Origin: Isurus oxyrinchus
Lineage: Eukaryota
DNA length: 64,000 bases
Direction: 5' to 3'
Assembly: GCA_026770705.1 (NCBI GenBank)
Contig: JANJGN010000189.1
Location: 496,001 to 560,000, forward strand
Shown here: piece after piece, positions 2,225-59,138 of the stretch
Position numbering within the stretch: position 1 is the stretch's first letter
Layout: the number at the start of each line of letters is the position of its first letter
Position numbers and translations under genes: made by a program
The notes under the pieces: model-generated
Told to the model about the DNA's origin: nothing
The model's input: the letters and a program-made list of their open reading frames with translations, nothing else
Databases searched by the model: none

Positions 2225-2590
2225 CAGACACGTGAAGCTGGGTTACAGGGTAATAGTTATGGCTCGGACCATTGTCAAATTCTATTCTGAAAAAATAAGG
2301 TCCTGCATCTTCCCGTCTGATGTTGTTTATAATCAGGGAACAGTCGCCATCTTTCAGGTCTCCAGACAGCCGGGTCCGATGGTGGAACCGTGGTAACTCG
2401 TGACTGTGATCCTTGGAGTGAAAGGCTATAGACGATGTTCTCCATTCCTCATTATTAAACCAGATTCCAACTCGTGGTTGGTTTTCCAAATGTGATGGAT
2501 AACTGTAATGACATGGAATCTGTACACACGAACTTTCCTGCGCTGTCACCTCTCGTGGAGTGTCACCTTTCCACTCTTGTGACATTCCAA
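2225..2590 (-). CDS. Siglec A: V-set sialic-acid-binding exon
   Basis: 366-nt phase 1-1 exon with Siglec hallmarks: CVQIPC, G.W, DCSL (B-E disulfide) and EDAGPYFFR carrying the essential F-strand Arg. Confidence 0.92.
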
Positions 2591-3954: not shown

Positions 3955-5207
3955 TCAGCAACTCTTCAGAATCCTGCTGAAGTCACGGATATTTCAGAAG
4001 GACAGGGAACAAGAGGTTTCTGGTATCAGCGTTTTGTGTGGGGCCCAGTTCAGTTTGAACAAATAAACAACACCATCTTTGAAAGTCATGAACCCACCAC
4101 AGCGGCACCTCCGACACATGCAGAGCTCAGGCGAGAGGCGCTTTGTTAGTGTGTTTCACAGTGTCTGCTGGAGTAGGGTCAGTGCTGAGAGGGTCTGCTC
4201 AAGGATCATAACAACCTGCACTTGCACCTTCCAAGTAATAAGATTTTGTAAATGTATTCATTCATGGGATGTGGGCGTCGCTGCCAAGGCCAGCATTTGC
4301 TGCCCATCTCTAATGTCCCGTGACATAATCTCTGTAGCAGAGTAGAGACAATCATGATCACTCAGGATATTTGACATCTATCCACATGAACAGCTTAGGC
4401 TTCCTTCTCTCTTTCAGTTATCTTACTCCCTTATTGAAGTTTCTAGCATGGTGAGAACTGGATGGTTTGCTCGGACATTTCAGAGGAACCACGTTGCTAT
4501 GAGTCTGGAGTCACATGTAGGCCAGACCAGATATAGACGGCAGATTTCCTTCCCTAAAGGCCATTAGTGAACCAGATGGGTGTGTATGACAATCGATGAT
4601 AGTTTCATGGTCTCCATTACTGAGACTAACTCCCATTAGTGTAAACAGAGTGAACAGTTTTCCATTGATCCCACCTTTCCCGTTCTCTCCGGTATTTTAC
4701 ACACTATTGCTCGATAATTTGATTCTGCCAAGGACCCCTTGGAAAATCATGGACCCCAGTTAGACAACCAATGGAATAAGGAATCTCTTTGGATTCTCAT
4801 TGTCTAAGGAATCTCTTTGGATCCTCATTGTCTAAGGAATCTCTTTGGATCCTCATTGTCTAAGGAATCTCTTTGGATCCTCATTGTCTAATGGATTATT
4901 TCTGATCCAAACCCCATATTGTTGTATTGTTGATTCCGATGCAGCATTGTAGACTGACTTGTCCCCAAGCTCAGCACTGACCCTACTCCAGCAGACACTG
5001 TGAAACACACTAACAAAGCGCCTCTAGCCTGAGCTCTGCATGTGTCGGAGGTGCCGCTGTGGTGGTTTCATGACTTTCAAAGATGCTGTTGTCATTTTTT
5101 TTGTTCAAACTGAACTGGGCCCCACATGAAATGCTGATACCAGAAACCTCTTCTTCCCTGTCCTTCTGAAACATCTGTGATTCAGCAGGATTCTGAAGAT
5201 TTGCTGA
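3955..5207. repeat. Inverted repeat, ~235-bp arms (3955-4189 / 4970-5207), in the Siglec A leader-V intron
   Basis: The arms are reverse complements; ORFs 3940+ and 5010- both end ESHE.TTAAPPTHAELR.EALC. Confidence 0.85.
4777..4889. repeat. 28-bp tandem repeat x4 (aaggaatctctttggatcctcattgtct)
   Basis: Read directly from the sequence. Confidence 0.9.
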
Positions 5208-6080
5208 CAAGGTTCTTAAATTGTCTGATTGTTGAATGATATAACACAGGAGGAGCTTGTTTGATCCATTGTGCATGTGCTGACTCTTTCCCAATTCCTC
5301 TCCAGCACCTTTCACACATCCCTGCAAATTTCCCTTCAAGTATTTATCCAGTTCCCCTTCTGAAAGTTCCTGTTGAATCTGCTTCCACCGCCCTTTCAGG
5401 CAGTGAGTCAATGGTCTCTCTCTGAGCTGCAAAGTGCTCAGATTCTGTGAAATTTAAACTCTGCAGCAGATCAGAAACAATTATGATAACTCAGAATATT
5501 TGACAGTTTTACACCCAGACAGCTTTGCCTTCCTTCTCTCTTTCAGTTATCTTGCTCCCTTATTGAAGTATCTAGCAAGGTGAGAATGGACAGGAAGTGT
5601 GACACTGAACAGCCTGTCTATTCTAGGAGCTGCTGTGTTGTCTTCATGGGAAATTCTGTCTAAAATCTGCAAAAGGCACACATTTCAGGTTATTGCTTTC
5701 AGAGTCCAAGCATCGGGATAGACTTCATCTCCCAGTGTTTATTCCTAATTTACTGCTCAACTCATCACTCCCCATGACTCACTGACCAGCATCCGACATC
5801 ACCTGAAGATTAAGATTCTGATCTAGCTGCTACAATCCTGCCTAACCCTCTAACCTCCTCCAGCCCCTACAACCATCCAGGACTTCTTCTATCCTCCAAT
5901 TCTGCTGTCAGACAGGGAGTCAGTGTATATCAGTGAGCACAGGGGTGATGGGTGAATGGGACTTGGTGTGAGTTTGTACACTGTCTCACTGCAGAATCAC
6001 TGCCCAATCAGAGCGCAATAAAAATGATCTTTTACAAAGACAATTAACCATAAATCTGTCCGAGCTGACGATGATATTAC

Positions 6081-6120
6081 CTTGGAGAAATGACAGGAGA
6101 AAGTAAGATTTCCCGATCAT
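6081..6120 (-). CDS. Siglec A: signal-peptide exon coding part (MIGKSYFLLSFLQ-G); full exon 6081-6160
   Basis: Polypyrimidine TTTCACAG acceptor at 6161-6162, ATG at 6120, phase-1 GTAATA donor that joins the V exon in frame. Confidence 0.85.
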
Positions 6121-6570
6121 TGTCCACTCGCAGATGTTCCATTAGCTTCTCACTCTCAAGCTGTGAAAGAGAAAGGAGTTAATAAGACCTCACCTCTTGT
6201 CTGACAGCTGTCGAGAGATCTGAACTTCTTTTAGACAATGTCATCACAGACTAATTTGATACTCTGCGGGATGATAGGTGCTCTGCAGAGAGTTACTAGG
6301 CTTTAAGAAAGAAAAACAATGAAGGACTTGCATTTCTATAGCACCTTTCACCTGCTCAGGACATCCCAAATCTCATGTCTCTGCACTTGTCTCATCCCTT
6401 GAGCTAGAAAGATGTTCTGTACAACAGACTTGAGCCCCACACCCAGATCTCAATAATCAGTAGAAATCTTTCAAAGGCATCAATCATTGGAATCTGTCTT
6501 TATAAAGTCACAACATCAACAAAGGACGGTGTTGATTGTGGAAGTGAATTCTAATCGTTCCGTTACTTAC

Positions 6571-6712
6571 CCAGGACCTGTCCGACTGCTCGCCTGGGGA
6601 GGAACTGCCCACACGTTCTGTTTGGGCTGAATGACCTCTTCCTGTGCTGATCTATCTGTGTATTTAATTAGAAAGAGCTGATGTGTCACTGTGAGTCAAA
6701 ATGAGGAAGTTG
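6571..6712 (-). promoter_or_regulatory. Siglec A: putative non-coding exon 1 and TATA-less promoter with PU.1/ETS and AP-1 motifs
   Basis: GG/GTAAGT donor at 6569-6570; AAAATGAGGAAGT at 6698-6710; TGAGTCA at 6692-6698; CAGGAAG at ~6640. The block is conserved in B. Confidence 0.55.
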
Positions 6713-6959
6713 GAGCAAACTGAGAGAAGAGCACTTTGCTGTGCACTGTCAGTAAACCCTGTGTCTGTATAAGAATATAAGAACAGAACAAGTAGGATCA
6801 GCTGGACACCCTGGCATTTTCATTCCTTATATTCCATCCACTCTTTTTTTTATCCACTCACTGAAACTATTTATCTCGCTCTACAGCCTCTTTGTGTCCT
6901 CCTCACAACTTGCTTTCCTGCTCAGTTTATATATTTCCTACCTATCTTAACCACACAGT

Positions 6960-10862: not shown

Positions 10863-11111
10863 TCAGTTTCTCTTGAATCTGATCTGTGCGTATTCCGTCT
10901 GCTCTTCCCTGTGGACAGACCCATCACCACTGGGCACCCTGAAGACTTGGGGATTGGCGTAGAGAAGCTCGTCGGGATTGTCAGGGTTCCCATGTCCAGC
11001 ATCGCCTCCCACTGCACATTCAGAGACACCCCGGGGAGCTGGGGTCTCCCCCTCGCTAGTTGTGTCTCTGGTTGTGTTCCGGGGCTCAGTAATCAGCACG
11101 TTCTGTTTACC
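10863..11111 (-). pseudogene. Orphan Siglec terminal cytoplasmic exon O1 (LLYANP; ITSM TEYAQI)
   Basis: 249-nt open exon with intact TGTAG acceptor, homologous to 50505-50741. No TM exon lies upstream in its unit. Confidence 0.7.
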
Positions 11112-11256
11112 CTACAGAGAAATGGAAACAGAAGGCATCCTCACATCATTTACTGGCACTGATAGGGTTAAAATATTCTGCAGCCTCGTTAGTGTCAGTC
11201 GTGGGTCAGTGGGTTTAACCCTCTCTCACATGTCTTATGAAAGAAAACACCTATGG

Positions 11257-11540
11257 CAGTGCAGTGCTCCCTCAGTACTGACCCTTCGATAGTGCAGCAC
11301 TTCCTCAATGCTGACCATCCAACAGTGCAGCACTCCCTCAGTACTGACCCTCCGACAGTGCAGCGCTCCCTCAGTACTGACCCTCCAGCAGTGCAGCGCT
11401 CCCTCAGTACTGACCCTCCGACAGTACAGGTCTTCCTCAGTACTGACCCTCTGACAGTGCAGCACTCCCTCAGTACTGACCCTCTGACAGTGCAGCACTC
11501 CCTCAGTACTGACCCTCTGTCAGTCTCGCACTCCCTCGGT
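11257..11540. repeat. 33-bp minisatellite (cagtgcagcactccctcagtactgaccctc[c/t]ga)
   Basis: Direct tandem units; they generate the 11-aa TVQHSLSTDPL pseudo-ORFs. Confidence 0.9.
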
Positions 11541-11666
11541 AATGGCTCTGGCAAGTGTCGGCTTGGATTCTGCACTCAGGTGCCTGGTGTGAGGCTCAAT
11601 AAAATGAATCTTGTAATCAGAGAGAGGATGAGAGAGAGAGAGAGAGATGAAGGGTCAGAGACTGAG

Positions 11667-12425
11667 CGTTATGAATCTATTAATGTATGTATTGTAATTG
11701 GAAATTGTCTTTTTAAACAGAGGTTTAGTCTGTGGGTGTGTGTGTGTGTGTTTTAATTGGATTAAAGCCAGCCGGTCTGGGTACTTTGATGTACAGTAGT
11801 TTTGAGATGTAAACAAAGAGGTAAAGAGGCATATTGCATTTTTAAAAGGAGGATTCAAAGCCTGGGAGTGAATTCTTAAACCAATCAATGTTTATATTAC
11901 TAATAAAATTGATACTATGAAACGGGAATTATAGTTAGAAGAGATGGAGATCAAAGGTCCTGATGATACAATGAGAATTTACATTCAAAGAGAAGAGCTG
12001 GGTATAACTTGAGCAGTTTTGTGTGTGCAGAGCAGAGGCTTGTAACATCAAAGCAGCTGTAAGCCTGCACCTGTCTGCAAAGGAACCAAAGTGAAAGGAA
12101 CCTCATTTGGAATTTGTGAGGTGAAAATGCTTCGCTTGGAATCTGCTTAAAGTCTATGGGTTGTCTTAGAGGACTTTAGTTTGGGAATTTGTTAAAAAGT
12201 TATGATAGTACTAGCTTGTAGCCATGTGCATATGATTAACTTGTGAAAATTAATAAATGTCTCATGTAGTTTGATATAACACCCATCTCAAGAACTGATG
12301 GTCTTATTCCTGAATTTAAAGCTGCATCTCAAACATTCCACTGGGAAATATAGGTTATGACAGTTGTTTAAAGTTTCCCTCTGGGATTTTAAACAACAGC
12401 CTTTACCAGTTGCTGTGTCATAACA
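11667..12425 (+). mobile_element. Solo-LTR-like element
   Basis: Ends (C/T)GTTATG ... CATAACA, homologous to 7228-8050, and absent from the homologous Siglec C intron (~51650). Confidence 0.6.
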
Positions 12426-12560
12426 GAGAGACAGCATGATACTGAACCATTGCTGACTCCACAGGTACAAATCAGTGGGTAACTGGGCTGGGAATCTGGG
12501 ACATGTGTTGTCTACACACTGAGATTGAAGCTTTGGAGTGAGTGTAAACAGCTCCTGTAC

Positions 12561-12642
12561 CTGGTGCTTCACAGAGAGTGGACTGGGGGTCAATGCAATG
12601 TCACTGGTCCCTGAAACTCTCTCCTCCATCGCTGTCTTTCTC
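12561..12642 (-). pseudogene. Orphan Siglec juxtamembrane cytoplasmic exon (RKTAMEERVSGTSDIALTPSPLSVKHQ)
   Basis: 82 nt with intact splice sites, near-identical to 51790-51871. Upstream homology is cut at ~12750 by a CR1 fragment. Confidence 0.7.
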
Positions 12643-12774
12643 CTGCAATAACACAATATCACACTGTGGTTATCATATAGCAGAGAGTCAGTGTAGCACA
12701 GACACAGAGCCCACTGTAATCTTAGACCAACGACTGGGACTGTCTCTTTAAATCAGTTCTATACAAAGCACAGA

Positions 12775-13230
12775 ATCAAGAAGCTTGACACCATCCAGGA
12801 CAAAGCAGCCCGATTGATCTACACCCCATCCCCCACATTAAACATTCACTCCCTCCACAACGAACACACAGTGGAAGCAGTGTGTGTACCATCTACAAGA
12901 TGCACTGCAGCAACTCAGCAAGGCACCTTCCAAACCCACGACCTCTACCATCTAGAAGGACAAGGGCAGCAGACACATGGGAACACCACCACCTGGAAGT
13001 TCCCCTCCAAGCCACTCACCATCCTGACTTGGAAATATATCATCGTTCCTTCACTGTCACTGGGTCAAAATCCTGGAGCTCCCTCCCTAACAGCACTGTG
13101 GGTGTACCTACACCACATGGACTGCAGCGGGTCAAGAAGGCTGATCACCACCACCTTCTCAAGGGCAATTAGGGATGGGCATTAATGCTGGCATCACCAG
13201 TGACAGCCACATTCGATGTAAGAATTAAAA
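12775..13230 (+). mobile_element. CR1-type LINE 3' fragment
   Basis: KKLDTIQDKAARLI-encoding sequence followed by the shared 3' tail; similar to 27960-28280 and 48260-48870. Confidence 0.8.
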
Positions 13231-13785
13231 ATCTCACAGCACAATGTATTTATTGGGATCCTCCTGCACACACGCCCTGTCGAAGGAGCCTTTGTGGTTC
13301 CATTGTTAATCGAAGCAGATCAGACTTACTGCAACTACTTGCATTTATATAGCACCTTTAATGTAGCAAAATGTCCCAAGGCTCATCCGGGAATTGTTAG
13401 TCACATCTTCACCTGACTCTGAGGCACATGAGGAGATATAAGGGACAGGAGACCAACAGCTGAGTCAACAAAGTCAGTTATTAACGGGCATCTTAAAGGA
13501 GGAGCTGGAGATAGAGAATGAGAGACAGACACAGAAAGAAAGACAGAGAGAGGGAGAGAGAGAACAAGAGAGCGAGAGAGAGAGACAGTGAATCTCGGTC
13601 CCCAGTGGCTCCGCATCCAGTCCTCTCTGGAGAAGCATTTCATTCCAAACCACACCAACCGCAGCCCAATCCCATCCCTTCCTCCCTCTCTCCCCCTCTC
13701 CCCCAGTGGGTTGTTTCCTGTTCCCAGGAATCTCAATCACTACCCCCACCCCCACACCTCCTCACTCCCACTCCCCATTTCTCAT

Positions 13786-14034
13786 TCAGTTATGCTCGAA
13801 CCTGATCTGTGCGTATTCCGTCTCCTCTTCCCTGTGGACAGACCCATCATCACTGGACATCCTCAATACTTGGGGATTGGCGTAGAGAAGGCCGTCGGGA
13901 TTGTCGATGTGCCAATGTCCAGCATCGCCTCCCAATGCACCTTCAGAGAGACCCCGGGGAGCTGGGGTCTCCCCCTCGCTAGTTGTGTCTCTGGTTGTGT
14001 TCCGGGGCTCAGAAATCAGCACGTTCTGTTTACC
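13786..14034 (-). pseudogene. Orphan Siglec terminal cytoplasmic exon O2 (LLYANP; ITSM TEYAQI)
   Basis: 249-nt open exon with intact acceptor. Its upstream intron runs into a minisatellite and then the oppositely oriented Siglec B promoter. Confidence 0.7.
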
Positions 14035-14179
14035 CTACAGAGAAATGGAAACAGAAGACATCCTCACATCATTTACTGGCACTGATAGGGTTAAATTATT
14101 GAGCAGCCTCGTTAGTGTCAGTCTTGTCTCAGTGGGTTTAACCCTCTCTCTCATGTCATCTGAAAGAAACCACCTATGG

Positions 14180-15048
14180 CAGTGCAGTGCTCCCTCAGTA
14201 CTGACCCCCCCGACTGTGCAGCACATTCTCAATAGTGACCCTCTGTCAGTCTCACACTCCCTCATTACTGACCCTCTGTCAGTCTTGCACTCCCTCTGTA
14301 CAGTGCAGCACTTCCTTAGCACTGACCCTCTGACAGTGCAGCACTTCCTTAGCACTGACCCTCTGACAGTGCAGCACTCCCTCGGAACTGACCCTCCATC
14401 AGTGCAGCACTCCCTCAGTACTGACCCTCCAACAGTGCAGCACTTCCTTAGCACTGACCCTCTGACAGTGCAGCACTCACTCAGTACTGACCCTCCATCA
14501 GTGCAGCACTCCCTTAGCCCTGACCCTCTGACAGTGCAGCACTCCCTCACTACTGACCCTCCAACAGTGCAGCACTGCTTTAGCACTGACCCTCTGACAG
14601 TGCAGCACTCACTCAGTACTGACCCTCCAACAGAGCAGCACTCCCTTAGCCCTGACCCTCTGACAGTGCAGCACTCCCTCACTACTGACCCTCCAACAAT
14701 GCAGCACTGCCTTAGCACTGACCCTCTGACAGTGCAGCACTCCCTCAGTACTGACCCTCCAACAGTGCAGCACTCCCTTAGCCCTGACCCTCTGACAGTG
14801 CAGCACTCCCTCAGTACTGACCCTCCAGCAGTGCAGCACTCCCTTTTCACTGACCCTCTGACAGTGCAGCACTCCCTCAATACTGACCCTGCAACAGTGC
14901 AGCACTTCCTTAGCACTGACCCTCTGATGGTGCAGCACTCCCACATTACTGACCCTCTGACAGTGCAGCACTCACTCAGTACTGACCCCTCCAACATTGC
15001 AGCATACCCTCTGCACTGACCCTCTGACAGTGCAGCACTCCCTCAGTA
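14180..15048. repeat. 33-bp minisatellite array
   Basis: About 26 direct tandem units. Confidence 0.92.
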
Positions 15049-15269
15049 ATGATACCACAGATTGTTGACATGGACCATATGGCCAGAGACCTGTATTGGG
15101 AACTCTTATCGCTTGAGTTTCAGCCTCCGAGGTGAGGGGAAGGGGTCTAACCCCACAGAGCCAATGGAGAAGCTTCATGACTACAGCTGCCCAAATATGA
15201 GCTGACAGATCATCACATGGTAAACGTTTTGCTGAGAGCACAAAACATCCTCAATCTTCTCACTGGTTA

Positions 15270-15412
15270 CCCACTTCCTCATTTTGTCTCACAGTGACAC
15301 ATCCACCCTTTCTAATTAAACACACAGAGGGGGCAGCACAGGAAGAGGTCATTCAGCCCAAGCAGAGCGTGTGGGCAGTTCCTCCCCAGGCAAGCAGTCG
15401 GACAGGTCCTGG
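15270..15412 (+). promoter_or_regulatory. Siglec B: putative promoter (PU.1/ETS) and non-coding exon 1
   Basis: CACTTCCTCATTTT at 15272-15285, CAGGAAG at ~15339, GG/GTAAGT donor at 15413; inverted copy of 6571-6712. Confidence 0.55.
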
Positions 15413-15862
15413 GTAAGTAACGGAACGATTGGAATTCACTTCCACCACCAACACCGTCCTTTGTTGATGTTGTGACTTTATAAAGACAGATTCCAATGAT
15501 TGATGCCTTTGAAAGATTTCTACTGATTATTGAGATCTGGGTGTGAGGCTCAAGTCTGTTGTACAGAACATCTTTCTAGCTCAAGGGATGAGGGAAGAGC
15601 AGGGACATGAGCTTTGGGATATCCTGAGGTGGTGAAAGGTGCTATAGAAATGCAAACCCTTCATTGTTTTTCTTTGTTAAAGTCTTGTGACTCTCTGCAG
15701 AGCACCTATCATCCCACAGAGAATCAAATTAGTCAGTGAAGACATTGTCTAAAAGCCGTTCTGATCTCTCGAGAGCTGTCGGACAAGAGGTGAGGTCTCA
15801 TTGTCTCCTTTCTCTTTCAGAGTTTGAGAGTCAGAAGTGGATGGAATATCTGGGAGTGGACA

Positions 15863-15902
15863 ATGATCGGGAAATCTTACTTCCTCCTGTCACTTCTCCA
15901 AG
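15863..15902 (+). CDS. Siglec B: signal-peptide exon coding part (MIGKSYFLLSLLQ-G)
   Basis: TTTCAG acceptor at 15819-15820, ATG at 15863, phase-1 GTAATA donor at 15903. Confidence 0.85.
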
Positions 15903-17149
15903 GTAATACCATCGTCAGCTCAGACAGATTTATGGCTAACAGTCTTTGTAAAAGATCATTTTTATTGAGCTGTGATTGGGAACCGATTCAGCAGTGAGCC
16001 AGTGTACAAACTCACACCAAGTCCCATTCATCCATCACCCCTGTGCTCACTGATATACACTGACTCCCTGTCTGACAGCAGAATTGGAGGAGAGTAGAGA
16101 TCTCAGAGGGTTGTAAGAACTGGAGGAGGTTACAGAGATAGGGAGGGGAGAGGGTGGATTGCGGGTAAGAAATCAATGATGAGAATTTGAAATTTGAGTC
16201 ATTGCTGGACTGGGAGTCAGTGTAGTTCAGCCAGTGACAGGGGAGCGATCGGCTGAATAGAGAATCAGGGATAAAAACTGAGGAATGAGGTCTATCCTGA
16301 TGTTAGGACTCGGATAACAATGCCCTGAAATTTTGTGTCATTTGCTGATTTTAGTCAGAATTTCCTATAAAGACAACACAGCAGCTCCTAGAATAGACAG
16401 GCTGTTCAGTGTCACACTTCCTGTCCATTCTCACCTTGCTAGATACTTCAATAAGGGAGCAAGATAACTGAAAGAGAGAAGGGAGGCAAAGCTGTCTGTG
16501 TGCAAAACTGTCAAATATTCTGAGTTATCATAATTGTCTCTGACCTGCTGCAGAGTTTAAATTTCACAGAATCTGAGCACTTTGCAGCTCAGAGAGAGAC
16601 CATTGACTCACTGCCTGAAAGGGCGGTGGAAGCAGATTCAACAGGAACTTTCAGAAGGGGAACTGGATAAATACTTGAAGGGGACATTTTGCAGGGCTGT
16701 GGAGGAGAGAGCAGAGGTTAGAGTGGGACTTATTGGACAGAACTTTCAAAGGTCCAGCACAGGCTCGATGGGCCAAATGACTTCCTTCTCTTCCAGATCA
16801 TTCTGCAATCTGATAAATTAAGCCCCACATCAATAACTCTTAAGGCTCCTGCTGCAGGGATGGATCTTTGACAAGGACAGAGAATAAGAGGTTTCTGGTA
16901 TCATTTTCATATTGTACTGAATCTTGCTGCCAGAATGTTTGGTCACCGCTGATCACCATGTTGTGTTTTTATAATGATATAAAGGCACCAGCCACTGATA
17001 CGGAATTGGGTAAATACATTGTGGGTTCAGTTATTTCAAATAGGGACATGAGAACAGATGTACAAGGATAGAAAGCTGGGAGACACCTGCAGCCAAACTG
17101 TGTGAGCTGTGTTCTGCTCACAGACCAAAGTGAAACTTGGACTGGATGG

Positions 17150-19795: not shown

Positions 19796-20161
19796 CTGGA
19801 CTACCACAAGTGTGGAAAGGTGACACTCCACAAGAGGTGACAGCGCAGGAAGGTTCGTGTGTACAGATTCCGTGTCATTACAGCTACCCATCATATTTAG
19901 TACCGAGATCACCTGTTGGAATCTGGTATATGAGAAGGAATTGGGAAACATGGTCTATAGCCTTTCACTCCAAGGATCACAGTCGCGAGTTACCACGGTT
20001 CCACCATCGGACCCGGCTTTCTGGAGACCTGAAAGATGGTGACTGTTCCCTGATTATAAACAACATCAGACGGGAAGATGCAGGATATTATTTATTCAGA
20101 ACAGATTTTGACAGCAGGAATAGATACAACGACCGTCCTGAAACCCAGCTTCATGTTTCTG
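19796..20161 (+). CDS. Siglec B: V-set exon V1 (loop-divergent)
   Basis: 366-nt phase 1-1 open exon, CCTAG acceptor and GTAAGT donor; CVQIPC, DCSL and YYLFR with the essential Arg retained. Confidence 0.88.
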
Positions 20162-21039
20162 GTAAGTGCTATGTTATAATTACTCAACAATTCACATCCA
20201 ACACTCAATGGGAAATAATAGTGTTTGATTTGCTTGTTTTTTGGCCGTGTTAACCAGCGTCACTATTTTTAATGATTTGTCTATTTCTGCTCCCAGATCC
20301 ATGAGCTTATTGTGTGTGATTGAATCCACATCATAGCTGTAACGTAAACCGAGCTGAGGGGTGATGACACCTCCCCCCTGAGTGAAGTGTCTCCTCCCCA
20401 CTACACCTTCCACCCCTCACACTGTCTGTGTAATCTCCCGTCCCATCCCCAGCCTCTCTTTCCCCTCCAAAGTCCTGCAACGTGTTTCCATCTCCCGAAT
20501 CCGTTCCCATCTTTCCCGGAACTCCATGTTTGAATCCCTCCAATCAGGTTCCCACCCCAGCCACTGTGCTGAAACAGCTCTTATTTTTATTGAGCCAATG
20601 CCAAGCCCCGATACCGAGCGAGAGCCTCCTCATTTGCTGAGTTTAAGGTGATGAGTCAGCCCCTTAGTCCGTAGAGGGGATTCTCCTCGGTAATGTGCAG
20701 CCTTGTTTGTGTCTCTCCACAAGCGCATGAGGGGTTTGTACAGAGGCTGCAGCGCTGGAGGGGGTCTGCACAGGGGTCCTGGCCTGTCCTGAGCCGGTTT
20801 TAGCAAGGACCACTCTGGCCTTGGCAGCTGAAAGCCAGCCATTGGACAGACGGGGCCTGTCACAAGGAGCCTGTTAGTCACTCCCCCCCCGTGTCTCCTG
20901 TGCTCAGATCCAGACCATGTTGGCTGGTGGATCTGGCTCAGGAAGGGTCCTCCCCATGGGACCCCCAGATGGAAGGTGGGTCGAGCGGGTCAGTCACTTG
21001 CATGTTTATTCTGCAGCTTTAATATTTTAAGAAAGTAAG

Positions 21040-21892: not shown

Positions 21893-22258
21893 CTGAACCC
21901 TCGCAAGAGTGGAAAGGTGACAATCCACGAGAGGTGACAGTGCAGGAATGTTCCTGTGTACAGATTCCATGTCATTACAGTTATCCATCGTGTCTGGAAA
22001 ACCAACCGCGAGGTGGAGTCTGGTTTAATAATGAGGAATGGAGAACATCGTCTATAGCCTTTCACTCCAAGGATCACAGTCACGAGTTACCACGGTTCCA
22101 CCATCGGACCCGGCTGTCTGGAGACCTGAAAGATGGCGACTGTTCCCTGATTATAAACAACATCAGACGGGAAGATGCGGGACCTTATTTTTTCAGAATA
22201 GAATTTGACAATGGTCTGAGCCATAACTATTACCCTGTAACCCAGGTTCACGTTTCTG
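21893..22258 (+). CDS. Siglec B: V-set exon V2 (near-identical to the Siglec A V exon)
   Basis: 366-nt phase 1-1 open exon, CCCAG acceptor and GTAAGT donor; YFFR Arg retained; two extra Cys. Confidence 0.88.
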
Positions 22259-22986: not shown

Positions 22987-23283
22987 ATTTCACAGATAAA
23001 CCCACGATATTCCCTGCTGAAATTATCGCAGGAAAGCCTGTGGATGTAAGCTGCACCTTCAACACAACGTGCAATGGAACAGCAGCACCTGTCTTAACCT
23101 GGGATACTCCCACTGACGTACCTGGATCAGTCTCAAACACTGTAACTCAGCATGGTGTCACTCTGACCTATACTTCTGTTCTGACCCTGATCCCATCACT
23201 CAAACACCACAGACACACTCTCAGCTGCAGAGTGAGATATCCATCTGTTGCATCGGAGCGGACCCTCGTACTAACTGTGCAAG
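22987..23283 (+). CDS. Siglec B: first C2-set exon
   Basis: 297-nt phase 1-1 exon, near-identical to 1070-1366. Confidence 0.9.
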
Positions 23284-23604: not shown

Positions 23605-23758
23605 CTGACATCTGAATATCACAATGAACAGAACAAGTTCCAACAATGAGCTGTGGTTGGTGATTCCTCACGTTACATCCAGGGACACTGGAGACTATCA
23701 GTGTGCTCAGAGAATGAACATGGAGCAGTGGAGGGGTTCATAACCATCACTGTGGAAC
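23605..23758 (+). pseudogene. Siglec B: dead C2 exon (3' half only)
   Basis: Matches MNRTSSNNELWLVIPHVTSRDTGDYQC. The acceptor and 5' half are replaced by unrelated sequence, and there is a 1-nt frameshift after the Cys (TGTGCTCAGAG vs TGTGTGGCAGAG). Confidence 0.8.
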
Positions 23759-24872: not shown

Positions 24873-25012
24873 ACAGTGGAGGAGAGATTCTGCACGTGAT
24901 CCTGATCCTGGGAATACGAGCTGTGATATTCCTTGTGGCTGTGGTTATCACTATCGCTGGAGTCTGTGTCTGGGAGAGACAAACAGTGAAAGGAAGTCGA
25001 CAGACTGTTTGA
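24873..25012 (+). CDS. Siglec B: terminal TM exon, activating type (DSGGEILHVILILGIRAVIFLVAVVITIAGVCVWERQTVKGSRQTV*)
   Basis: TTCTCTAG acceptor at 24871-24872, phase 1 in frame with the C2 exon. Hydrophobic helix with an internal Arg, short Tyr-free tail, TGA at 25010-25012, AATAAA at 25396. Confidence 0.8.
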
Positions 25013-25744
25013 AGCTTTGTACAGCAACAATCTGGTCAGTCAGTGCGGACAAATAACGTGTGATGTTGTGTTAAGTTGTAATGAAACTGGTCAGTGTCCT
25101 GGTTATAATCGTCTCCGTATCATCGAGTCATTCCAGCAATGGAGGAGGACATTTGGCCCATTGAGTCTATGCTGTCTCTCTGTAAAGCAATCCACTCAGT
25201 CCCATCCCCTGCTCTATCCCCGTATCCCTGCAAATTTATTTCCAATTTCCGTCCAATTTCCTTTTGAAATTGTTCATCGAATAGGAATGAACAGAAATGT
25301 GACGTTGCTAAACTCTGTTCTCTGATTGGAATGTGCTTTCTGAATGCTGCACCTTTTTCATGCTGCGATAGATTGTAAGAAGCATTTGGCTTATGAATAA
25401 AATTACATTGATTAACTCAAGTGATTAAAATGCTCAGCCTGTTCTGTAGATATTTAAAGATTAAAATTCTTGTTTTGCTGCAAAATACTTGGCTCAAAGA
25501 CATAGCTTCCTGTTGTCACGTTTTCCAATCAGATGAATTCCTCTGTCCATCTTTATAATAGAAATTTCCAATGTAAACATGTCACATTGTAACTGCACAC
25601 TCTTGCCAGTGGGTGGTGTGATACCAAAGCTGTCTTGCTGCAGAGAAACAGCGAGAAATATTCCTGTTGTGTGCATGAACTTCATGTTAGCATGAGACAC
25701 AGGCATCAGATGAAATTTTGTGCAATTTGTACAATGTTCTTTAG

Positions 25745-26460
25745 ACAGTGCAGCACTCCCTCAGATCAGACCCTCCGACAATGCAGAACTCCCTCAGTTC
25801 AAACCCTCCGACAGTGCAGCACTCCCTCAGTTCAGACCCTCCGACTGTGCAGCACTCCCTCAGTTCAAACCCTCCGACAGTGCAGCACTCCCTCAGTTCA
25901 GAACCTCCGACAGTGCAGCACTCTCTCAGTTCAAACCATCCGACAGTGCAGCACTCCCTCAGTTCAAACCCTCCAACAATGCAGCACTCCCTCAGTTCAA
26001 ACCCTCCGACAGTGCAGCACTCCCTCAGTTCAGACCCTCTGACAGTGCAGCACTCTCTCAGTTCAGACCCTCTGACAGTGCAGCACTTTCTCAGTTCAGA
26101 CCCTCTGACAGTGCAGCACTCCCTCATTTCAGACCCTCCGACAGTGCAGCACTCCCTCAGTTCAGACCCTCCGACAGTGCAGCACTCCTTCAGTTCAGAC
26201 CCTGCGACAGTGCAGCACTCCCTCAGTTCAAGCCCTCCGACAGTGCAGCTCTCCCTCAGTTCATACCCTCCGACAGTGCAGCACTCCCTCAGTTCATACC
26301 CTCCGACAGTGCAGCTCTCCCTCAGTTCAGACCCTGCGACAGTGCAGCACTCCCTCAGTTCAAACCATCCGACAGTGCAGCACTTCCTCAGTTCAAGCCC
26401 TCCGACAGTGCAGCACTCCCTCAGTACTGAACCTCCGACAGTGCCGCACTACCTCAGTAC
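25745..26460. repeat. 33-bp minisatellite, locally homogenised variant (cagttca[g/a]accc)
   Basis: About 21 tandem units sharing a variant core not seen in the other arrays. Confidence 0.92.
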
Positions 26461-35500: not shown

Positions 35501-37369
35501 GACACAGCAGCACTCCCTCAGTACTGACCTCCGACAGTATAGCACTCCCTCAGTACTGTCCCTCCAATAGTGCAACACTTCCACACTACTGACCCTCTGA
35601 GAGTGCAGCACTCCCTCAGCACGGAGCGTTGATCTACATTATGGGACTGAATTCCCTGGAGTGAGACTCAGACCAGTGATTTAGGTAGGGTTGTGGGGGC
35701 TGGAGGAGGTTACAGAGATAGGGAGGGCTGTAGAGGCTGTAGGAGGTTACAGAGAAAGGGAGGGTTGTAAGGGCTGTAGGAAGTTACAGAGATAGGGAGG
35801 GTTGTAGAGGCTGTAGGAGGTTACAGAGATAGGGAGGGTTGCAGGGGCTGGAGGAGGTTACAGAAATAGGGAGGGCTGTAGAGGCTGTAGGAGGTTACAG
35901 AGATAGGGAGGGTTGTAAGGGCTGTAGGAAGTTACAGAGATAGGGAGGGTTGTAGAGGCTGTAGGAGGTTACAGAGATGGGGGAGTTGTGGGGGCTGGAG
36001 GAGGTTACAGAGGTAGGGAGGTGTGTAGGGGCTGTGGGAGGTTAAAGAGATGGGGGGGTTGTGGGGGCTGGAGGAGGTTACAGAGATAGGGAGGTGAGTA
36101 GGGGCTGTAGGAGATTAAAGAGATGGGGGGGTTGTGGGGGCTGGAGGAGGTTACAGATGTAGGGAGGGTTGTAGAGGCTGGAGGAGGTTACCAAAATAGA
36201 CACTGCTGTAGGGGCCACAGTAGGTTACAGAGATAGGGAGAGTTATAGTGTGGAGAGGAGGTTATAGAGTTCAGGAGGATTGTAGGGGCTGGAGGAGGTT
36301 ACAGTGATTGTGAGGGTTGTGGGGCCTGGAGGATTTTACAGAGATAGGGAGGGTTGTAGGGTCTGGAGCAGGTTACAGAGATAGGGAGGGTTGTAGGGTC
36401 TGGAGCAGGTTACAGAGATAGGGAGGGTTGTAGGGTCTGGAGCAGGTTACAGAGATAGGGAGGGTTGTAGGGTCTGGAGGAGGTTACAGTGATCGTGAGG
36501 GTTGTGGGGCCTGGGGGAGGTTACAGAGATAGGGAGTGTTGTGGGGACTGTAGGAGGTTACATAGATAGGGAGGGTTGTCGGGTCTGGAGGAGGTTACAG
36601 AGATAGGGAGGGTTATAGGGACGGGAGGAGGTTACAGAGATAGGGTGGGTTGTAGAGACTGTAGGATGTTACAGAGATAGGGAGGGTTGTAGGGGTTGGA
36701 GGAGGTTACAGAGATAGGGAGGGTTGTAGGGGCTGGAGGAGGTTACAGAGATAAGGAGGGTTGTAGGGGCTGGAGGAGGTTATAGAGATAGGGAGGTTGT
36801 ACGGGCTGGAGGAGGTTACAGAGATAGGGAGGGTTGTAGGGGCTGGAGGAAGTTACAGAGATAGGGAGGGTTGTAGGGGCTGGAGGAAGTTACAGAGATA
36901 GGGAGGGTTGTAGGGGCTGGAGGAGGTTACAGAGATAGGGAGGGGTGTAGGGGCTAGAGGAGGTTACAGAGATAGGGAGGGTTGTAAGGCCTGGTGGAGG
37001 TTACAGAGATAGGGAGGGTTGTAGGGGCTGGAGGAGTTTACAGAGATAGGGAGGGTTGTACGGGCTGGAGGAGGTTACAGAGATAGGGAGTCGCTGAGGA
37101 GGGATTGAAAACAAGAATGAGAATTTCAGGGGAAATGACAGAAGGAAATGATGTTAAATTCATAGAGGGCGACAATATTAAAGGCACGAACATAATTTTA
37201 TCAAACTGCGGAAGAGACCAGTCTATCTGGGTGGTAGACGTAGAGTCATGTGCAAGAAACACCTCACCCAGAGGGACATCTCTTAGCTTACCCTCGACAA
37301 GGAGAAGAAGTGACTCAGCTGCAGGGAGAGCAGCAAAGTCAGAGTGAACAAGACAAGTCGCCATTTCAT
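32399..37369 (-). CDS. HAMP: Hepcidin prepropeptide, 83 aa; join(37369-37292, 34966-34910, 32515-32399): MKWRLVLFTLTLLLSLQLSHFFSLSR VDTALGSSTIEKSVDSPDT GSLLQRQKR/MDRQQLCIFCCNCCNWRGPNETCGLCCRY
   Basis: Three exons (78+57+117 nt) with GT-AG phase-0 introns. Signal peptide, prodomain, furin site RQKR and the C-CC-CC-C-CC 8-Cys hepcidin motif. It lies among Siglec genes, as human HAMP lies beside MAG/CD22. Confidence 0.93.
32600..33210 (-). mobile_element. SINE (DeuSINE/SacSINE1-like) ending in a 33-bp minisatellite expansion (32980-33210)
   Basis: The minus strand has GCTGTCTTTCAGATGAGATGTTAAAC, resembling the Deu core as I recall it, and runs directly into the minisatellite. A similar copy is at 35065-35625. 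Confidence 0.55.
33488..33640. mobile_element. Young Penelope-like-derived insertion with a perfect 24-bp hairpin and a 14-bp TSD
   Basis: Arms 33488-33511 and 33521-33544 with a 9-nt loop; TAGAGAAATGCAAG duplicated at 33477 and 33640. Confidence 0.7.
34910..34966 (-). CDS. HAMP: HAMP exon 2 (prodomain)
   Basis: CTTTCTTTTTGCAG acceptor, GTAGGT donor, 57 nt open in phase 0. Confidence 0.8.
35685..37090 (+). repeat. 37-bp G-rich minisatellite (ggggctggaggaggttacagagatagggagggttgta) in HAMP intron 1
   Basis: About 38 tandem units. Confidence 0.92.
37292..37369 (-). CDS. HAMP: HAMP exon 1 coding part (signal peptide)
   Basis: ATG at 37369, hydrophobic leader, GTAAGC donor, TATA box ~90 nt upstream. 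Confidence 0.88.
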
Positions 37370-39739: not shown

Positions 39740-41025
39740 CTCCCTCCCTATATCTGTAACCTCCTCTCTCTCTCCCTTTCCTCCAGCCCCTACAACCCTC
39801 CCTTAGGTAGCCTCCACCTGCCTCTACAATCCTCCCCATCTCTGTAACCACCTTCAACCCCTACACCCCTCCCTATATCTGTAACCACCTCCAACCCCCA
39901 CAACCCTCCCCATCTCTGTAACCACCTTCAACCCCTACACCCCTCCCTATACCTGTAACCTCCTCCAGCCCCTGTAACCCTCCCTATCTCTGTAAACTCC
40001 TCCAGCCCCTACACCCCTCCCTATCTCTGTAACCTCCTCCAACCCCTACAACCCTCCCTATCTCTGTAACCTCCTCCAACCCCTACAACCCTCACTATCT
40101 CTGTAACCTCCTCCAGCCCCTACAACCCTCACTATCTCTGTAACCTCCTCCAACCCCTACAACCCTCACTATCTCTGTAACCTCCTCCAACCCCTACAAC
40201 CATCCCTATCTCATTAACCTCCTCCAACCCCTACAACCCTCACTATCTCTGTAACCTCCTCCAACCCCTACAACCCTCACTATCTCTGTAACCTCCTCCA
40301 ACCCCTACAACCATCCCTATCTCATTAACCTCCTCCAACCCCTACAACCATCCCGATCTCATTAACCTCCTCCAACCCCTACAACCCTCCCTATCTCTGT
40401 AACCTCCTCCAACCCCTACAACCCTCCCTATCTCTGTAACCTCCTCCAGCCCCTACAACAATCCCTATCTCTGTAACCTCCTCCAGCCCCTACAACCCTC
40501 CCTATCTCTGTAACCTCCTCCAGCCCCTACAACAATCCCTATCTCTGTAACATCCTACAGTCTCTACAACCCTCCCTATCTCTGTAACCTCCTCCAGTCC
40601 CTACAACCCTCCCTATCTCTACAACCTGCTCCACCCCCTGCAACTCGCCCTATCTGTGTCATCCTCCAGCCCCTACAACCCTACCTATTTCTGTAACCAC
40701 CTTCAACCCCTACACCCCTCCCTATCTCTGTAACCTCCTCCAACCCCTACAACCCTCCCTATCTCTGTAACCTCCTCCAACCCCTACAACCCTCACTATC
40801 TCTGTAACCTCCTCCAACCCCTACAACCCTCACTATCTCTGTAACCTCCTCCAACCCCTACAACCCTCACTATCTCTGTAACCTCCTCCAACCCCTACAA
40901 CAATCCCTATCTCTGTAACCTCCTCCAGCCCCTACAACAATCCCTATCTCTGTAACCTCCACCAGCCCCTACAACCCTCCCTATCTCTGTAACCTCCTCC
41001 AGCCCGTACAACCCTCCCTATCTCT
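39740..41025 (-). repeat. 37-bp minisatellite, inverted relative to 35685-37090
   Basis: Unit ccctacaaccctccctatctctgtaacctcctcca[a/g]c in tandem. Confidence 0.92.
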
Positions 41026-50504: not shown

Positions 50505-50741
50505 TCAGTTTTTCTGGAACCTGATCTGTGCGTATTCCGTGTCCTCGCTCCTGTGCACAGTCCTGTCACCGCCGGGCAGCTTTGAAAAGTTGATGTTGGC
50601 ATAGAAAAGCTCGTCGGGTTTGTCGGGGTTCCCATGTCCAACATCGCCTCCCACTGGACCTTCAGAGAGACCCCGGGGAGCTGGGGTCTCCCCCTCACTA
50701 GTTGTGTTCCGGGGCTCAGTAATCAGCACGTTCTGTTTACC
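50505..50741 (-). CDS. Siglec C: terminal cytoplasmic exon with ITIM-like LFYANI and ITSM TEYAQI
   Basis: 237-nt phase-0 exon with TGTAG acceptor; the two-tyrosine layout is as in CD33-related Siglecs. Confidence 0.88.
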   Translation of the reverse strand, partial: GKQNVLITEPRNTTSEGETPAPRGLSEGPVGGDVGHGNPDKPDELFYANINFSKLPGGDRTVHRSEDTEYAQIRFQKN

Positions 50742-51189
50742 CTACAGAGAAATAGAAACAGAAGACATCCTCACATCATTTACTGGCACTGATAGGGTTA
50801 AGTTATTCTGCAGCCTCGTTACTGTCACTCATGTCTCAATGGGTTTAACCCTCTTTTTCACTCTCTTTCTCTGTCTCCTTTTTTTCAATCTCTTTCTCTG
50901 TCTCTCTTTCTCTCTCTCTCTCTTGCTTTCTCTCTCTATTTATCATGTAATCTCTCCCGCTATCGCAGACCTGAGTCTTGAAGTCCTATGTTACCATCCC
51001 AATCATGAGATTTGTGCCCCATTATTCACAAACACAGACACACAAAGAACCTCACGCCAATGAAGGAATTTTATTGAAGGGCGACACTGCTACAGTGTTG
51101 GAAATGTGGCCATGGGACCAGATAAGATGGTAAACATGGTCAGCATTATACAACTATTCTGAAAGAGGCACCTCGAACACTGCAATGTT

Positions 51190-51578
51190 CTCTCAGTGCT
51201 CTCTGCTGACAGTGCAGCACTCCCTCGGAACTGCCCCTTCAAGAGGGCAGCACCCCTTGAAAATGGACTCTTTGACAGTGCAGCACTCACTCAGTACTGT
51301 CCTCAGTACTGACCATCCGACAGTGCAGCACTCCCTCAGTACTGACCCTCCGACAGTGCAGCACTCCCTCAGTACTGACCGTCCGACAGTCCAGCACTCC
51401 CTCAGTACTGACCCTATGACAGCGCAGCACTCCCTCAGTACTGACCCTCTGACAGTCTAGCTCTCCCTCAGTACAGACCCTCTGACAGTGCAACACTCCC
51501 TCAGTACTGACCTTCTGACACTCCAGCACTCCCTCAGCACAGACCCTAGGACAGTGCAGCACTCCCTCACTACTGACA
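51190..51578. repeat. 33-bp minisatellite
   Basis: Tandem units. Confidence 0.88.
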
Positions 51579-51789
51579 TCAGGTGCCTTGTCATTATTGC
51601 GTTCAGGTTTCTGGTCAAAGAGCGAGTGATGGAGGGAAGAGGGGGAGGGAGCGAGAGACAATGCTACCTACTGAGCCATATCTGACTCCACAGGTAGATA
51701 TCTGTGGGTAACCTGGCTGGGAATCTGGGACATGTGTTGTCTACAAACTGAGATAGAAGCTTTGGAGTGAGTGTAAACAGCTCCTGTAC

Positions 51790-51871
51790 CTGGTGCTTCA
51801 CAGAGAGTGGACTGGGGGTCAATACAATGTCACTGGTCCCTGAACCTCTCTCCTCCATCGCTGTCTTTCTC
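51790..51871 (-). CDS. Siglec C: juxtamembrane cytoplasmic exon (RKTAMEERGSGTSDIVLTPSPLSVKHQ)
   Basis: 82 nt, phase 2-0; joins the TM and terminal exons in frame. Confidence 0.85.
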
Positions 51872-52749
51872 CTGCAATAACACAATATCACACTGTGGTT
51901 ATCATATAGCAGAGAGTCAGTGCAGCACAGACACAGAGCCCAGTGTAACCTTACACCAACGACTGGACTGTCTCTAGTTCCAATAAGGGGTATCAGCGTG
52001 ACATCACTATAATGGAAGTGTGTCATGTGATCCAATCTCAGTTTGACTTTTGCTTTGAGCAGAACACACACTCACAGCTCTGATGCCTTCAATCTTTCTC
52101 CATATGTATAACTGTTCTCGTGCCGAGTCTTGATAAACAAATCATTAAAATTCTCACCCAATCCCTGTGAGCGATTGGTGCTTTGTTTCTTGTACAATAA
52201 ATAAGCCTAAGGTATAATATCATTATAATGACACGCCATATCTTTGACCCACCCTCCACCCCTGCTCTTCCCCCCATAGCCCTTCAAATGTTCCCCCTTC
52301 AAGTATTTATCCAATTCCCCTTTTGAAAGATCCTATTAAATCTGCTTCGAGCGCCCTTTCAGGCAGCACCTTCCAGATCACAGCAACTGATTATTATTCA
52401 TCTGGATAACGGGCAATGAAAAACACTGTCTGGATCGTAAGGGACAAAAGAGACCAGTTACGGAGAGGCATCTGGCGCTTAACACAAGGGAAACAATCAC
52501 CGACTTCAGGAAAGAACATTGAAGCAAATATTTATCCAGGAGTAATCGTGCAGAGTGAGGAATCTCTGGGTCTCGTGATTGTTTACCTGGATACAGGACA
52601 ATGAAAGGTTCTCTCCGGATCAGAGTGGACACAAGGATCACTTACAGAGAGGGACCTGGTGCTGATCCCAAGGGAAACAATCACCGACTTAAGGAAAGAA
52701 CATTGAAGCAAATGTTTATATTAAAATCAAGTTAAATCTTCAGACTTAC

Positions 52750-52846
52750 TTTCTCACACAGATGAAGATGAAGATTCCAGCCAGGAAAACACTCAACATG
52801 ATCCCAGCCGTGAACAATCCTACTGTCCATTTACTGGAGTCTCTAC
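52750..52846 (-). CDS. Siglec C: uncharged TM exon (RRDSSKWTVGLFTAGIMLSVFLAGIFIFICVRK)
   Basis: TTTTTACAG acceptor, GTAAGT donor, 97 nt phase 1-2, hydrophobic helix. Confidence 0.88.
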
Positions 52847-53656
52847 CTGTAAAAACAGCCATTAATTACTGCACTACAGGTTTACAATGATGCTCCGATG
52901 TATCTCGAGAAGCGATACACTCACTCAGTGTTTAAATACTCATTCTCGGGCAATGCTGACATTTATTGTCCATCCCTAGTTTCCCCTTGAGAAGGTGGTG
53001 GGCGGTCTTCCTCCTGAACCACTGGTTTGTCCCAAACTGGGAGACCAGTTCAGAGGGCAGGTGTGAGTTAACCATGTTGGTGTCTGAGACTGGAGTCACA
53101 TCCACATCGAGACATGCTTCCCTCCCTAAAGGGTATGTAGTCTCTACACATGTAACAACCAACCTCACTGAAATAATCGACTATCAGGTCATTATCACAC
53201 GGTGGTTTGCGGGATCTTGCTGTGCACAAATCAGTACCTGTGTTTCCTACATTACAACAGTGAGCTCACTTCGATAATGCTGCATTGGCTGTTGAATGTT
53301 TAGTAATTTCTAAGCAATTTATGAATACAATAGTTGCATTTCAACATGTAACATTTATATATAATATTTATCAATTAAAGAATGAGATGTTCAGCAATTA
53401 AAAGGGTTGTTCAGGACAGTTAGAGAGAGAAAGGTCATCAAGTACGGAGATTGGAAACGAAGACGTGACAGCCTTGTCCTCACAACCATTGAAGGAGAAA
53501 CTGAGAGCAAAAACAGAAAGGGAGAGGAAAAATTGGGTGTGTGGATAACGTGGACTGAGCGAGGATTGAAGAAAACTGGATTAAAAACAACACGATCCCA
53601 ATGGCTCCACGGAGACCACGGAGACAACAAACAAACAAATGTATCTCCACACTCAC

Positions 53657-57645: not shown

Positions 57646-58773
57646 GGAATGTCTGTGTTAGGGAGAGAGCTTATGTGTGAGAGAGAAAGAAAGAGAGAGA
57701 ATCTGTGGGTGTTAGATAGTGTGTGTGTGAAAGAGAGAGTGTGTATGTGAGAGAGCGTGTGCGTGAGAGCGTGTGTGTGTGTGTTTCAGAGAGAGGGTGT
57801 ATGTGTTTGAGAGAAGGAGTGTGCGAGAGAGGGTGTGCGTGTTTGAGAGGGAGTGTGTGTGTTTAAAAGAATGAACAAGAGAAAATGTGTGTATGTGTGT
57901 GTGTGTCTGCGTGTGAGATCTCCCCCCTGCTCTTCCTCCAAATAGTGGCTGTGGGATCTTTCACACCCGCCCGAGAGGGCAGACGGGGGACTCGGTTTAA
58001 TGTCTAATATTGGACTAATCTCTAGGCGAGGTTGGCTAGATGGATTATTGACAAGGTCCATTCACCCTGTAAAGAGTTTCTCTGGTTTGAAATACCTGAT
58101 CAAACATCGAGTTCTGTGTCTAAACCTTGTGTTGAAAAGACACCTTTCCAGCTCTTCACCTGCCATTAGCTTGTTGAGTCTTCACACGCTCCGTCTGTCC
58201 GTGACCAACCCCTCTTAGCTCATCCTTTCCTTGTCGTACATCGAGCTGTTCATCCTGACGGGTTCCATCCTTCCCAGTAACACTCCATCTCCGACATCAA
58301 ACTAACTCCCAACACGTTGATGAATTGTATGGATTCCAGCGTCAGTTGGTTCTGTCTGAGGCTGTTTCTCTGATCGGGGACCGAGCTGTTCTGAACGGAC
58401 ATTGTGTTCAGCAGTTCTTATTGCAGATCAGGCTGTTCAACCAATGCTGCTGTTCACTGAGGTGACTCCGATTCTACATTCACACATTAATGATCTCATG
58501 TCCAGCAGCAAACATCTGTATGAAGCCAGGTTCAAGAAAAAACCCAGCTGCTTGATCCGACAGTTATCTGTTCAGGCATGGCCCCTTGTTCCAAATAACA
58601 AACATTATTTAAAAATAGTCATCACATGAGCCTGGTTAACAAGGAAATGAAACCATGAACAATTTGCAGTGAAGTGAAACGTACAGGACTAATCTATTTA
58701 TATTGAGCTGATGATATAGAATTTTACACGAGGCATGTTGCTAATTTCAAACATCATCTGAATTACGACAGTT

Positions 58774-59138
58774 CTGACAGTGCAGCACTCCCTCAGTACT
58801 CACCCCCTGACAGTGCAGCACTCCCTCAGTACTGACCCTCTGATAGTGCAGCACTCCCTCAGTACTGACCCTCTGACAGTGCAGCACTCCCTCACTACTG
58901 ACCCTCTGACAGTGCAGCACTCCCTCAGTACTGACCCTCTGACAGTGCAGCACTACCTCAGTACTGACCCTCTGACAGTGCAGCACTCCCTCAGTACTGA
59001 CCCTCTGACAGTGCAGCACTCCCTCAGTACTGACCCTCTGACAGCGCAGCACTACCTCAGTACTGACCCTCTGACAGTGCAGCACTCCCTCAGTACTGAC
59101 CCTCTGACAGTGCAGCACACCCTCAGTACTCCCTCACT
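58774..59138. repeat. 33-bp minisatellite within the third copy of the segmental repeat
   Basis: About 11 tandem units. Confidence 0.9.

Follow-up and report, generated by a model that had tools for sequence, protein, structure and literature searches.

CD33-related Siglecs are described, in the available text of one source, as clustered genes with a fast-evolving N-terminal V-set domain and with losses of the essential arginine, Siglec-12 having two V domains (PMC6288428); the available text of another puts humans at about 15 Siglecs, counts only four regular Siglecs in bony fish, and gives the charged transmembrane residue of fish Siglec-15 as lysine (PMC7226832). In human Siglec-8, -9, and -3, the sequence and charge of the C-C' loop are reported to set glycan preference, charge setting the preference for sulfated glycans in models (PMC10477811, as available), and Siglec-11/16 (and 5/14) are reported to have undergone V-exon conversion between activating and inhibitory partners, the converted exons being under relaxed constraint (PMC5701461, as available).

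The shark gene family examined here, from a 64,000-nucleotide stretch of the Isurus oxyrinchus genome (the window), resembles the CD33-related Siglecs, as those texts present them, in clustering, fast V-domain change, arginine loss, and the presence of two-V genes, but differs in that i) it comprises hundreds of genes, against about 15 in humans; ii) annotated shark proteins have up to 7 V domains, and the C-C' loop falls into length classes; and iii) the nearest solved structures are sialoadhesin and MAG rather than CD33, in a ranking by sequence and fold and not by orthology. The family is like the paired Siglec-11/16 and 5/14, so far as these are described, in apparent conversion under relaxed constraint, but whole V exons are said to be made alike within a mammalian pair, whereas within-exon breakpoints reassort loop classes among many shark genes; the charged transmembrane residue of the shark family is arginine, not the lysine given for fish Siglec-15. 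The kind of evolution (fast V change, conversion) is known from mammalian Siglecs; the scale is unusual, and the loops are modular. Antibody and T-cell receptor CDRs also combine variable surface patches with a constant V framework, the B-C and F-G loops being the CDR1 and CDR3 positions; each shark V domain, in contrast, is germline-encoded by a single exon, belongs to one of a few classes, and varies in C-C' rather than C'-C'', the check for somatic rearrangement consisting of a reading of the flanks by eye. Our search of the main texts of openly accessible papers found no paper dedicated to a shark Siglec expansion; there is one passing mention in the available text of PMC8455134, and the available text of PMC13358205 does not mention sharks.

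We consider it fairly probable that this is a very large shark Siglec-type family in which the C-C' and F-G loops, carried on a conserved framework, exist in a few old and discrete versions that have recombined among the genes, probably through crossover or gene conversion, and that would give receptors with different ligand preferences. If so, the family, with at least 256 leader exons and reshuffled binding faces, would represent an independent and much larger way for the oldest jawed lineage to sense self and non-self glycans; its discrete loop classes would permit a small, direct glycan-array test.

Gene structure and Siglec identity

Three V exons lie in the window: V1 (19796..20161, + strand), a first (distal) Siglec-type V-set domain of the basic/aromatic "MRR" loop class, with an open frame and intact AG/GT ends; V2 (21893..22258, +), an inner V domain of V1's gene, of the EEWRTS/NG-SHN class, with Cys33 (21991-21993) and, in addition, Cys19; and A (2225..2590, - strand), the first V domain of a neighboring single-V gene, of the EEWRTS/NGPSHN class. 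Exon mapping gives V1's gene the Siglec-like layout leader-V-V-C2-TM(Arg), which makes V1 the distal and V2 the inner domain of a single receptor. The coding part of the leader exon (15863..15902, +; MIGKSYFLLSLLQ) has a phase-1 GT donor; an intact C2-set exon (22987..23283, +) is followed by a broken second C2-type exon (23609..23757, +), unmatched in its 5' part, frameshifted near 23706, and likely skipped; and the transmembrane exon (24873..25012, +) encodes an arginine within the helix and a short tail, so that V1's gene would signal through an adaptor by way of this arginine and would play an activating role. Contigs from four runs of one sample, presumed to be RNA, contain the V2-to-C2 and C2-to-TM joints at GT-AG ends, and the leader-V and V-V joints with the letters of paralogs; these joints support the architecture at the level of the family rather than transcription of the V1 copy itself. 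Ranking V1 against V2 RNA by contig depth was rejected, depth being unsuited to such ranking.

A neighboring family gene has exons for an uncharged transmembrane segment and a tail (50508..52865, -) with ITIM/ITSM-like tyrosine motifs by the usual definitions of ITIM and ITSM, a hint that activating and inhibitory receptors are paired. Further tyrosine-motif tail exons occur at 10866-14058 (-), with no same-strand transmembrane exon upstream before the + strand gene is reached, and were possibly stranded by an inversion. Positions 5135-6730 and 15255-16903 form an inverted duplicate, 85% identical, covering the 5' end of each of two family genes that point apart. Minisatellite arrays are common to the introns (11250-11550, 14150-15050, 25740-26460, 35680-37090, 39740-41025, and 58770-59135).

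The V1 domain scores above cut-off for both Pfam V-set and Ig_CD22; its best PDB sequence matches are sialoadhesin, MAG, and Siglec-5; and its predicted model (pLDDT 88.9) matches the fold of sialoadhesin and MAG with TM 0.85-0.88 (0.87 to 2bve), sialoadhesin and MAG ranking above CD33 and being followed, by fold and sequence together, by Siglec-5, -7, and -10 and CD33. Pfam, sequence matches, and fold comparison agree in bearing out the initial annotation of a Siglec-type V domain. Siglec V domains are characterized by a B-E cysteine pair, an F strand without cysteine, an extra cysteine for the V-C2 link, and an A-strand tryptophan; Trp6, Cys21, Cys26, and Cys83 of the shark domain align with the sialoadhesin pattern, and are conserved in 145-147 of 148 exons; the cysteines would form the corresponding, predicted, disulfide bonds. 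The strand-F arginine (Arg101) is present in V1, V2, and A and is kept in 164/193 intact exons, and the family has the C2-set domain, the transmembrane segment, and either a tyrosine-motif tail or a charged transmembrane residue, joined by splicing at family level. Judged by sequence, the shark family has the features of Siglecs, and sialic-acid binding is putative. All 91 homologues found (91/91), whose database names are automatic, come from sharks and rays, with lamniform sharks nearest.

Variable patches and discrete loop classes

Every string quoted in the initial annotation is located in the window, although HLENQPRVG and NGPSHN, which it gave to V2 and A alike, belong to A; V2 reads CLENQPRGG and NGLSHN. 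The contrast that it drew between variable patches and a near-invariant framework is borne out, the 31 differences among the 121 residues of V1 and A being distributed as follows: i) 6/7 residues in the B-C patch (19894..19914, +; residues 33-39), residue 33 being cysteine in inner V domains; ii) 7/9 in the C-C' patch (19927..19953, +; residues 44-52); iii) 12/19 in the third patch (20086..20142, +; residues 97-115), which consists of the F strand around Arg101 (20098-20100) plus the F-G loop; iv) 3/5 in a fourth patch at the N-terminal residues; v) 2/27 in FR1; and vi) only 1/44 in the central framework (19954..20085, +; residues 53-96). None of 20000 shuffles equals a 44-residue stretch with a single difference; the densest 9-residue window (7 differences, p=0.06) is unexceptional by itself. 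In the predicted structure the patches appear to adjoin the conserved arginine on the putative sugar-binding face, as had been expected.

The proposed charge reversal in C-C' holds in sign but amounts only to +1 in V1 and -1 in A, and the equal length of the patches holds for V1, V2, and A but not for the family, in which C-C' ranges from 9 to 20 residues; because this range is filled by discrete classes, the equal C-C' length of V1 and A is accidental, and in V1's nearest relatives the loop is 3 residues longer. A compensated frameshift behind the C-C' patch was considered, since an alignment of V1 and A with a one-base shift, which requires two gaps, has about 7 mismatches in place of 12, but was set aside because the longer relatives leave the C-C' alignment ambiguous.

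The family is very large. In genome G000 a 27-nt word of the framework is matched exactly at 657 places, which gives at least 657 V exons; leader exons number at least 256 by a 25-nt leader word, and a word for the loop class of V1 has 113 copies. These totals run across contigs and may be inflated by haplotype duplicates; haplotype duplication was rejected as the full cause of copy number, contig C52 by itself carrying 69 of the leader matches and 184 of the V exons sampled. Our V exon sample comprises 222 full exons from 160 loci and is non-random because the loci were picked either for resemblance to V1 and A or through the framework word; we discarded two partial matches, a single truncated exon, and copies cut at edges. 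Intact exons number 193/222, and 148 of these are unique. A few family exons also lie on large contigs off the main cluster (C34:15.13-15.19 Mb and C25:36.07 Mb of G000).

Across the sampled exons, sequence entropy peaks at the same three patches, and the loop diversity resolves into few discrete classes with many identical loop strings. The C-C' loops of the 148 unique exons are EEWRTS (42), IPWAP (61), MRR (37), YVKW (5), and other (3), with net charges from -2 to +6. In the YVKW class on C52 (e.g. L080, L093, and L143), a tandem three-residue WNT unit lengthens C-C' to 14, 17, and 20 residues. Proteins of catsharks, sevengill shark, sawshark, and sawfish also contain IPWAP-like and EEW-TSS-like loops, one white shark protein has exactly V1's F-G string, and among 119 domains MRR loops are confined to lamniform proteins. 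"CDR-like hypervariability", as the initial annotation had it, is therefore overstated: continuous per-copy diversity at CDR-equivalent loops was not found, the classes are few, many copies are near-identical, and the main length variation is in C-C', which in the Ig fold is no CDR-equivalent loop.

Loop classes are bound to domain position. The long basic/aromatic MRR and YVKW loops occur in first domains only (63/63 exons); Cys33 marks 87/95 inner but 1/113 first V domains, and likely pairs with Cys21 of the preceding V domain; and replacement of Arg101 by Ser, Thr, or Gly, found in 26 intact exons, is again restricted to first domains (26/26), affecting 24/54 exons of the MRR class. Cys33 is also an inner-domain marker in other sharks and one ray.

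Reassortment of loop modules and the conserved framework

With C-C' and F-G classes assigned by crude patterns, all four pairings of EEWRTS or IPWAP with NGPSHN or SRN are present (35, 27, 69, and 9 exons), while MRR pairs with NGPSHN (18) or YNDRPE (39). The PHI test detects recombination (p=2e-4), and a two-parent scan finds a gain of at least 6 mismatches in 6/148 exons (null mean 0.6, maximum 3) and of at least 10 mismatches in 3/148, a level reached by none in 100 column shuffles. Three of the six mapped breakpoints fall inside the central framework; the clearest mosaic (21 vs 3 mismatches) breaks in the framework. Only these six exons are clear recent mosaics, and V1, V2, and A are not among them.

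The initial annotation also held that gene conversion had homogenized the framework. In a set of 50 domains, all from proteins in which first and inner positions are both represented, an inner-domain clade is rejected by the framework tree (AU p=0.009) but a lamniform clade is not (p=0.28), and the loop tree of the same domains does not reject an inner-domain clade (p=0.18), these 33- and 75-column trees being poorly resolved. Since C-C' and F-G classes mix and lineage, rather than domain position, orders the framework tree, shuffling and framework homogenization are both supported, the latter between first and inner V domains; much of the framework invariance, on the other hand, is old conservation between sharks and rays together with purifying selection, the framework string being conserved from rays to sharks in all species sampled. 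Lineage grouping and internal breakpoints point to concerted evolution of the framework, with partial exceptions by framework distance: the inner domain is nearer to a first domain of its own lineage in 16/28 cases, as seen in lamniforms and sawshark but not in catsharks and carpet sharks. Synonymous divergence between V1 and A is not clearly lower in the framework (2/31.5) than in the upstream intron (24/209), and framework third-position divergence is similar between classes (0.059) and within them (0.047), which fits conversion on the evidence of about 40 sites. The intron after each V exon (20162-20218 in the window, and in paralogs) begins with about 56 near-invariant nucleotides (1.5-3.5% divergence), even in cases where its remainder is unalignable; this stretch may be the end of a conversion tract or a splice element.

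These observations are in keeping with a mechanism in which the long near-identical framework would serve as substrate for crossover and gene conversion behind the observed reassortment of 5' and 3' loop modules, and conversion would act as the homogenizing force on the framework. The loop classes would then differ in ligand preference, as we suppose because C-C' charge is reported to set sulfated-glycan preference in the Siglec-8/9/3 models (PMC10477811, available text). A bolder form of the same idea, which we hold to be doubtful, is a germline combinatorial repertoire of several hundred activating and inhibitory receptors, in which C-C' class, F-G class, and one to several tandem V domains would be reassorted by way of the constant framework, and in which the lamniform basic, Trp-rich distal class, often lacking the sialic-acid arginine (24/54), would recognize ligands other than sialic acids, for example sulfated or microbial polymers.

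Tests of selection on the loops and partial decay of the family

We regard it as doubtful that, as the initial annotation proposed, ongoing diversifying selection focuses amino-acid change on the binding face. Between V1 and A, pN/pS is about 1 (0.52/0.55 in B-C, 0.36/0.41 in F-G), and in codon models run with our own MG94-type code on FastTree trees, rather than with PAML or HyPhy, regional dN/dS is 1.1-1.4 in the loops, never significantly above 1, 0.6 in FR1, and 0.6-0.9 in the central framework. On internal branches the framework is under purifying selection (dN/dS 0.55, p=0.001) and the loops stand at 1.36 (p=0.10); on terminal branches dN/dS is about 1 in loops and framework alike.

In favor of diversifying selection, the site-wise comparison of M8 with M8a gives 2dL=36 (50 without CpG codons), a statistic reached by 0/8 neutral simulations with even rates, with 11 of 15 flagged sites in the patches (Fisher p=5e-4); among the flagged residues, 107-110 match in alignment positions 103-106 of sialoadhesin, which we take to be ligand contacts, and the C2 control is not significant once CpG codons are removed. 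With those codons kept, however, both the V framework and the C2 control are significant too, and 7/15 neutral simulations with gamma-distributed codon rates match the real statistic (region-specific trees; gamma shape 2 chosen by us, the fitted synonymous rates in the data being about 0.2-6). M7/M8, the test proposed in the initial annotation, is rejected as proof of selection, and we caution that this standard test yields false positives as large as the observed value on data of this kind. A test with free synonymous rates fares better in the patches (14.0, reached by 0/20 neutral simulations, maximum 4.9), but removal of residue 33, where cysteine marks domain position, lowers the value to 8.2, and removal of C-C' as well lowers it to 3.1, so that the surviving signal leans on a position marker and on poorly alignable columns; F-G alone gives 6.7, a value with no matched null. 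When each loop class is taken by itself, dN/dS in the loops (0.86, 0.99, and 1.39) is in no case significant, and first and inner domains run separately give similarly weak results. The loops are freed from purifying selection, with positive selection possible at a few sites. Under the reassortment of old loop classes that we favor, positive selection probably acted episodically as the classes arose, the loops otherwise tolerating change (dN/dS about 1).

We think it unlikely that relaxed constraint and birth-and-death suffice, the patches drifting neutrally and folding holding the framework in an array that was amplified recently, is partly decaying, and has no functional loop classes: dN/dS near 1 in loops and terminal branches, the 29/222 broken exons, the 14 further exons that differ from V1 by at most 5 nt, and the framework string shared from rays to sharks agree with such a scenario, but it leaves unexplained the loop classes kept across distant sharks, the tie of MRR/YVKW to first domains, and the loss of arginine to Ser, Thr, or Gly in first domains only, and recombination is detected by both the PHI test and the two-parent scan.

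Gene turnover is heavy, and because terminal-branch dN/dS is near 1 even in the framework and 29/222 exons are broken, part of the family is in decay, and some of the variety among loops may have no function. On contig C52, 10/17 Arg-bearing transmembrane exons are preceded by a first V exon that belongs to one loop class and is frameshifted, and another is preceded by a V exon that contains a stop and has lost its acceptor; the transmembrane exons behind these broken V exons are copies of an amplified broken activating gene.
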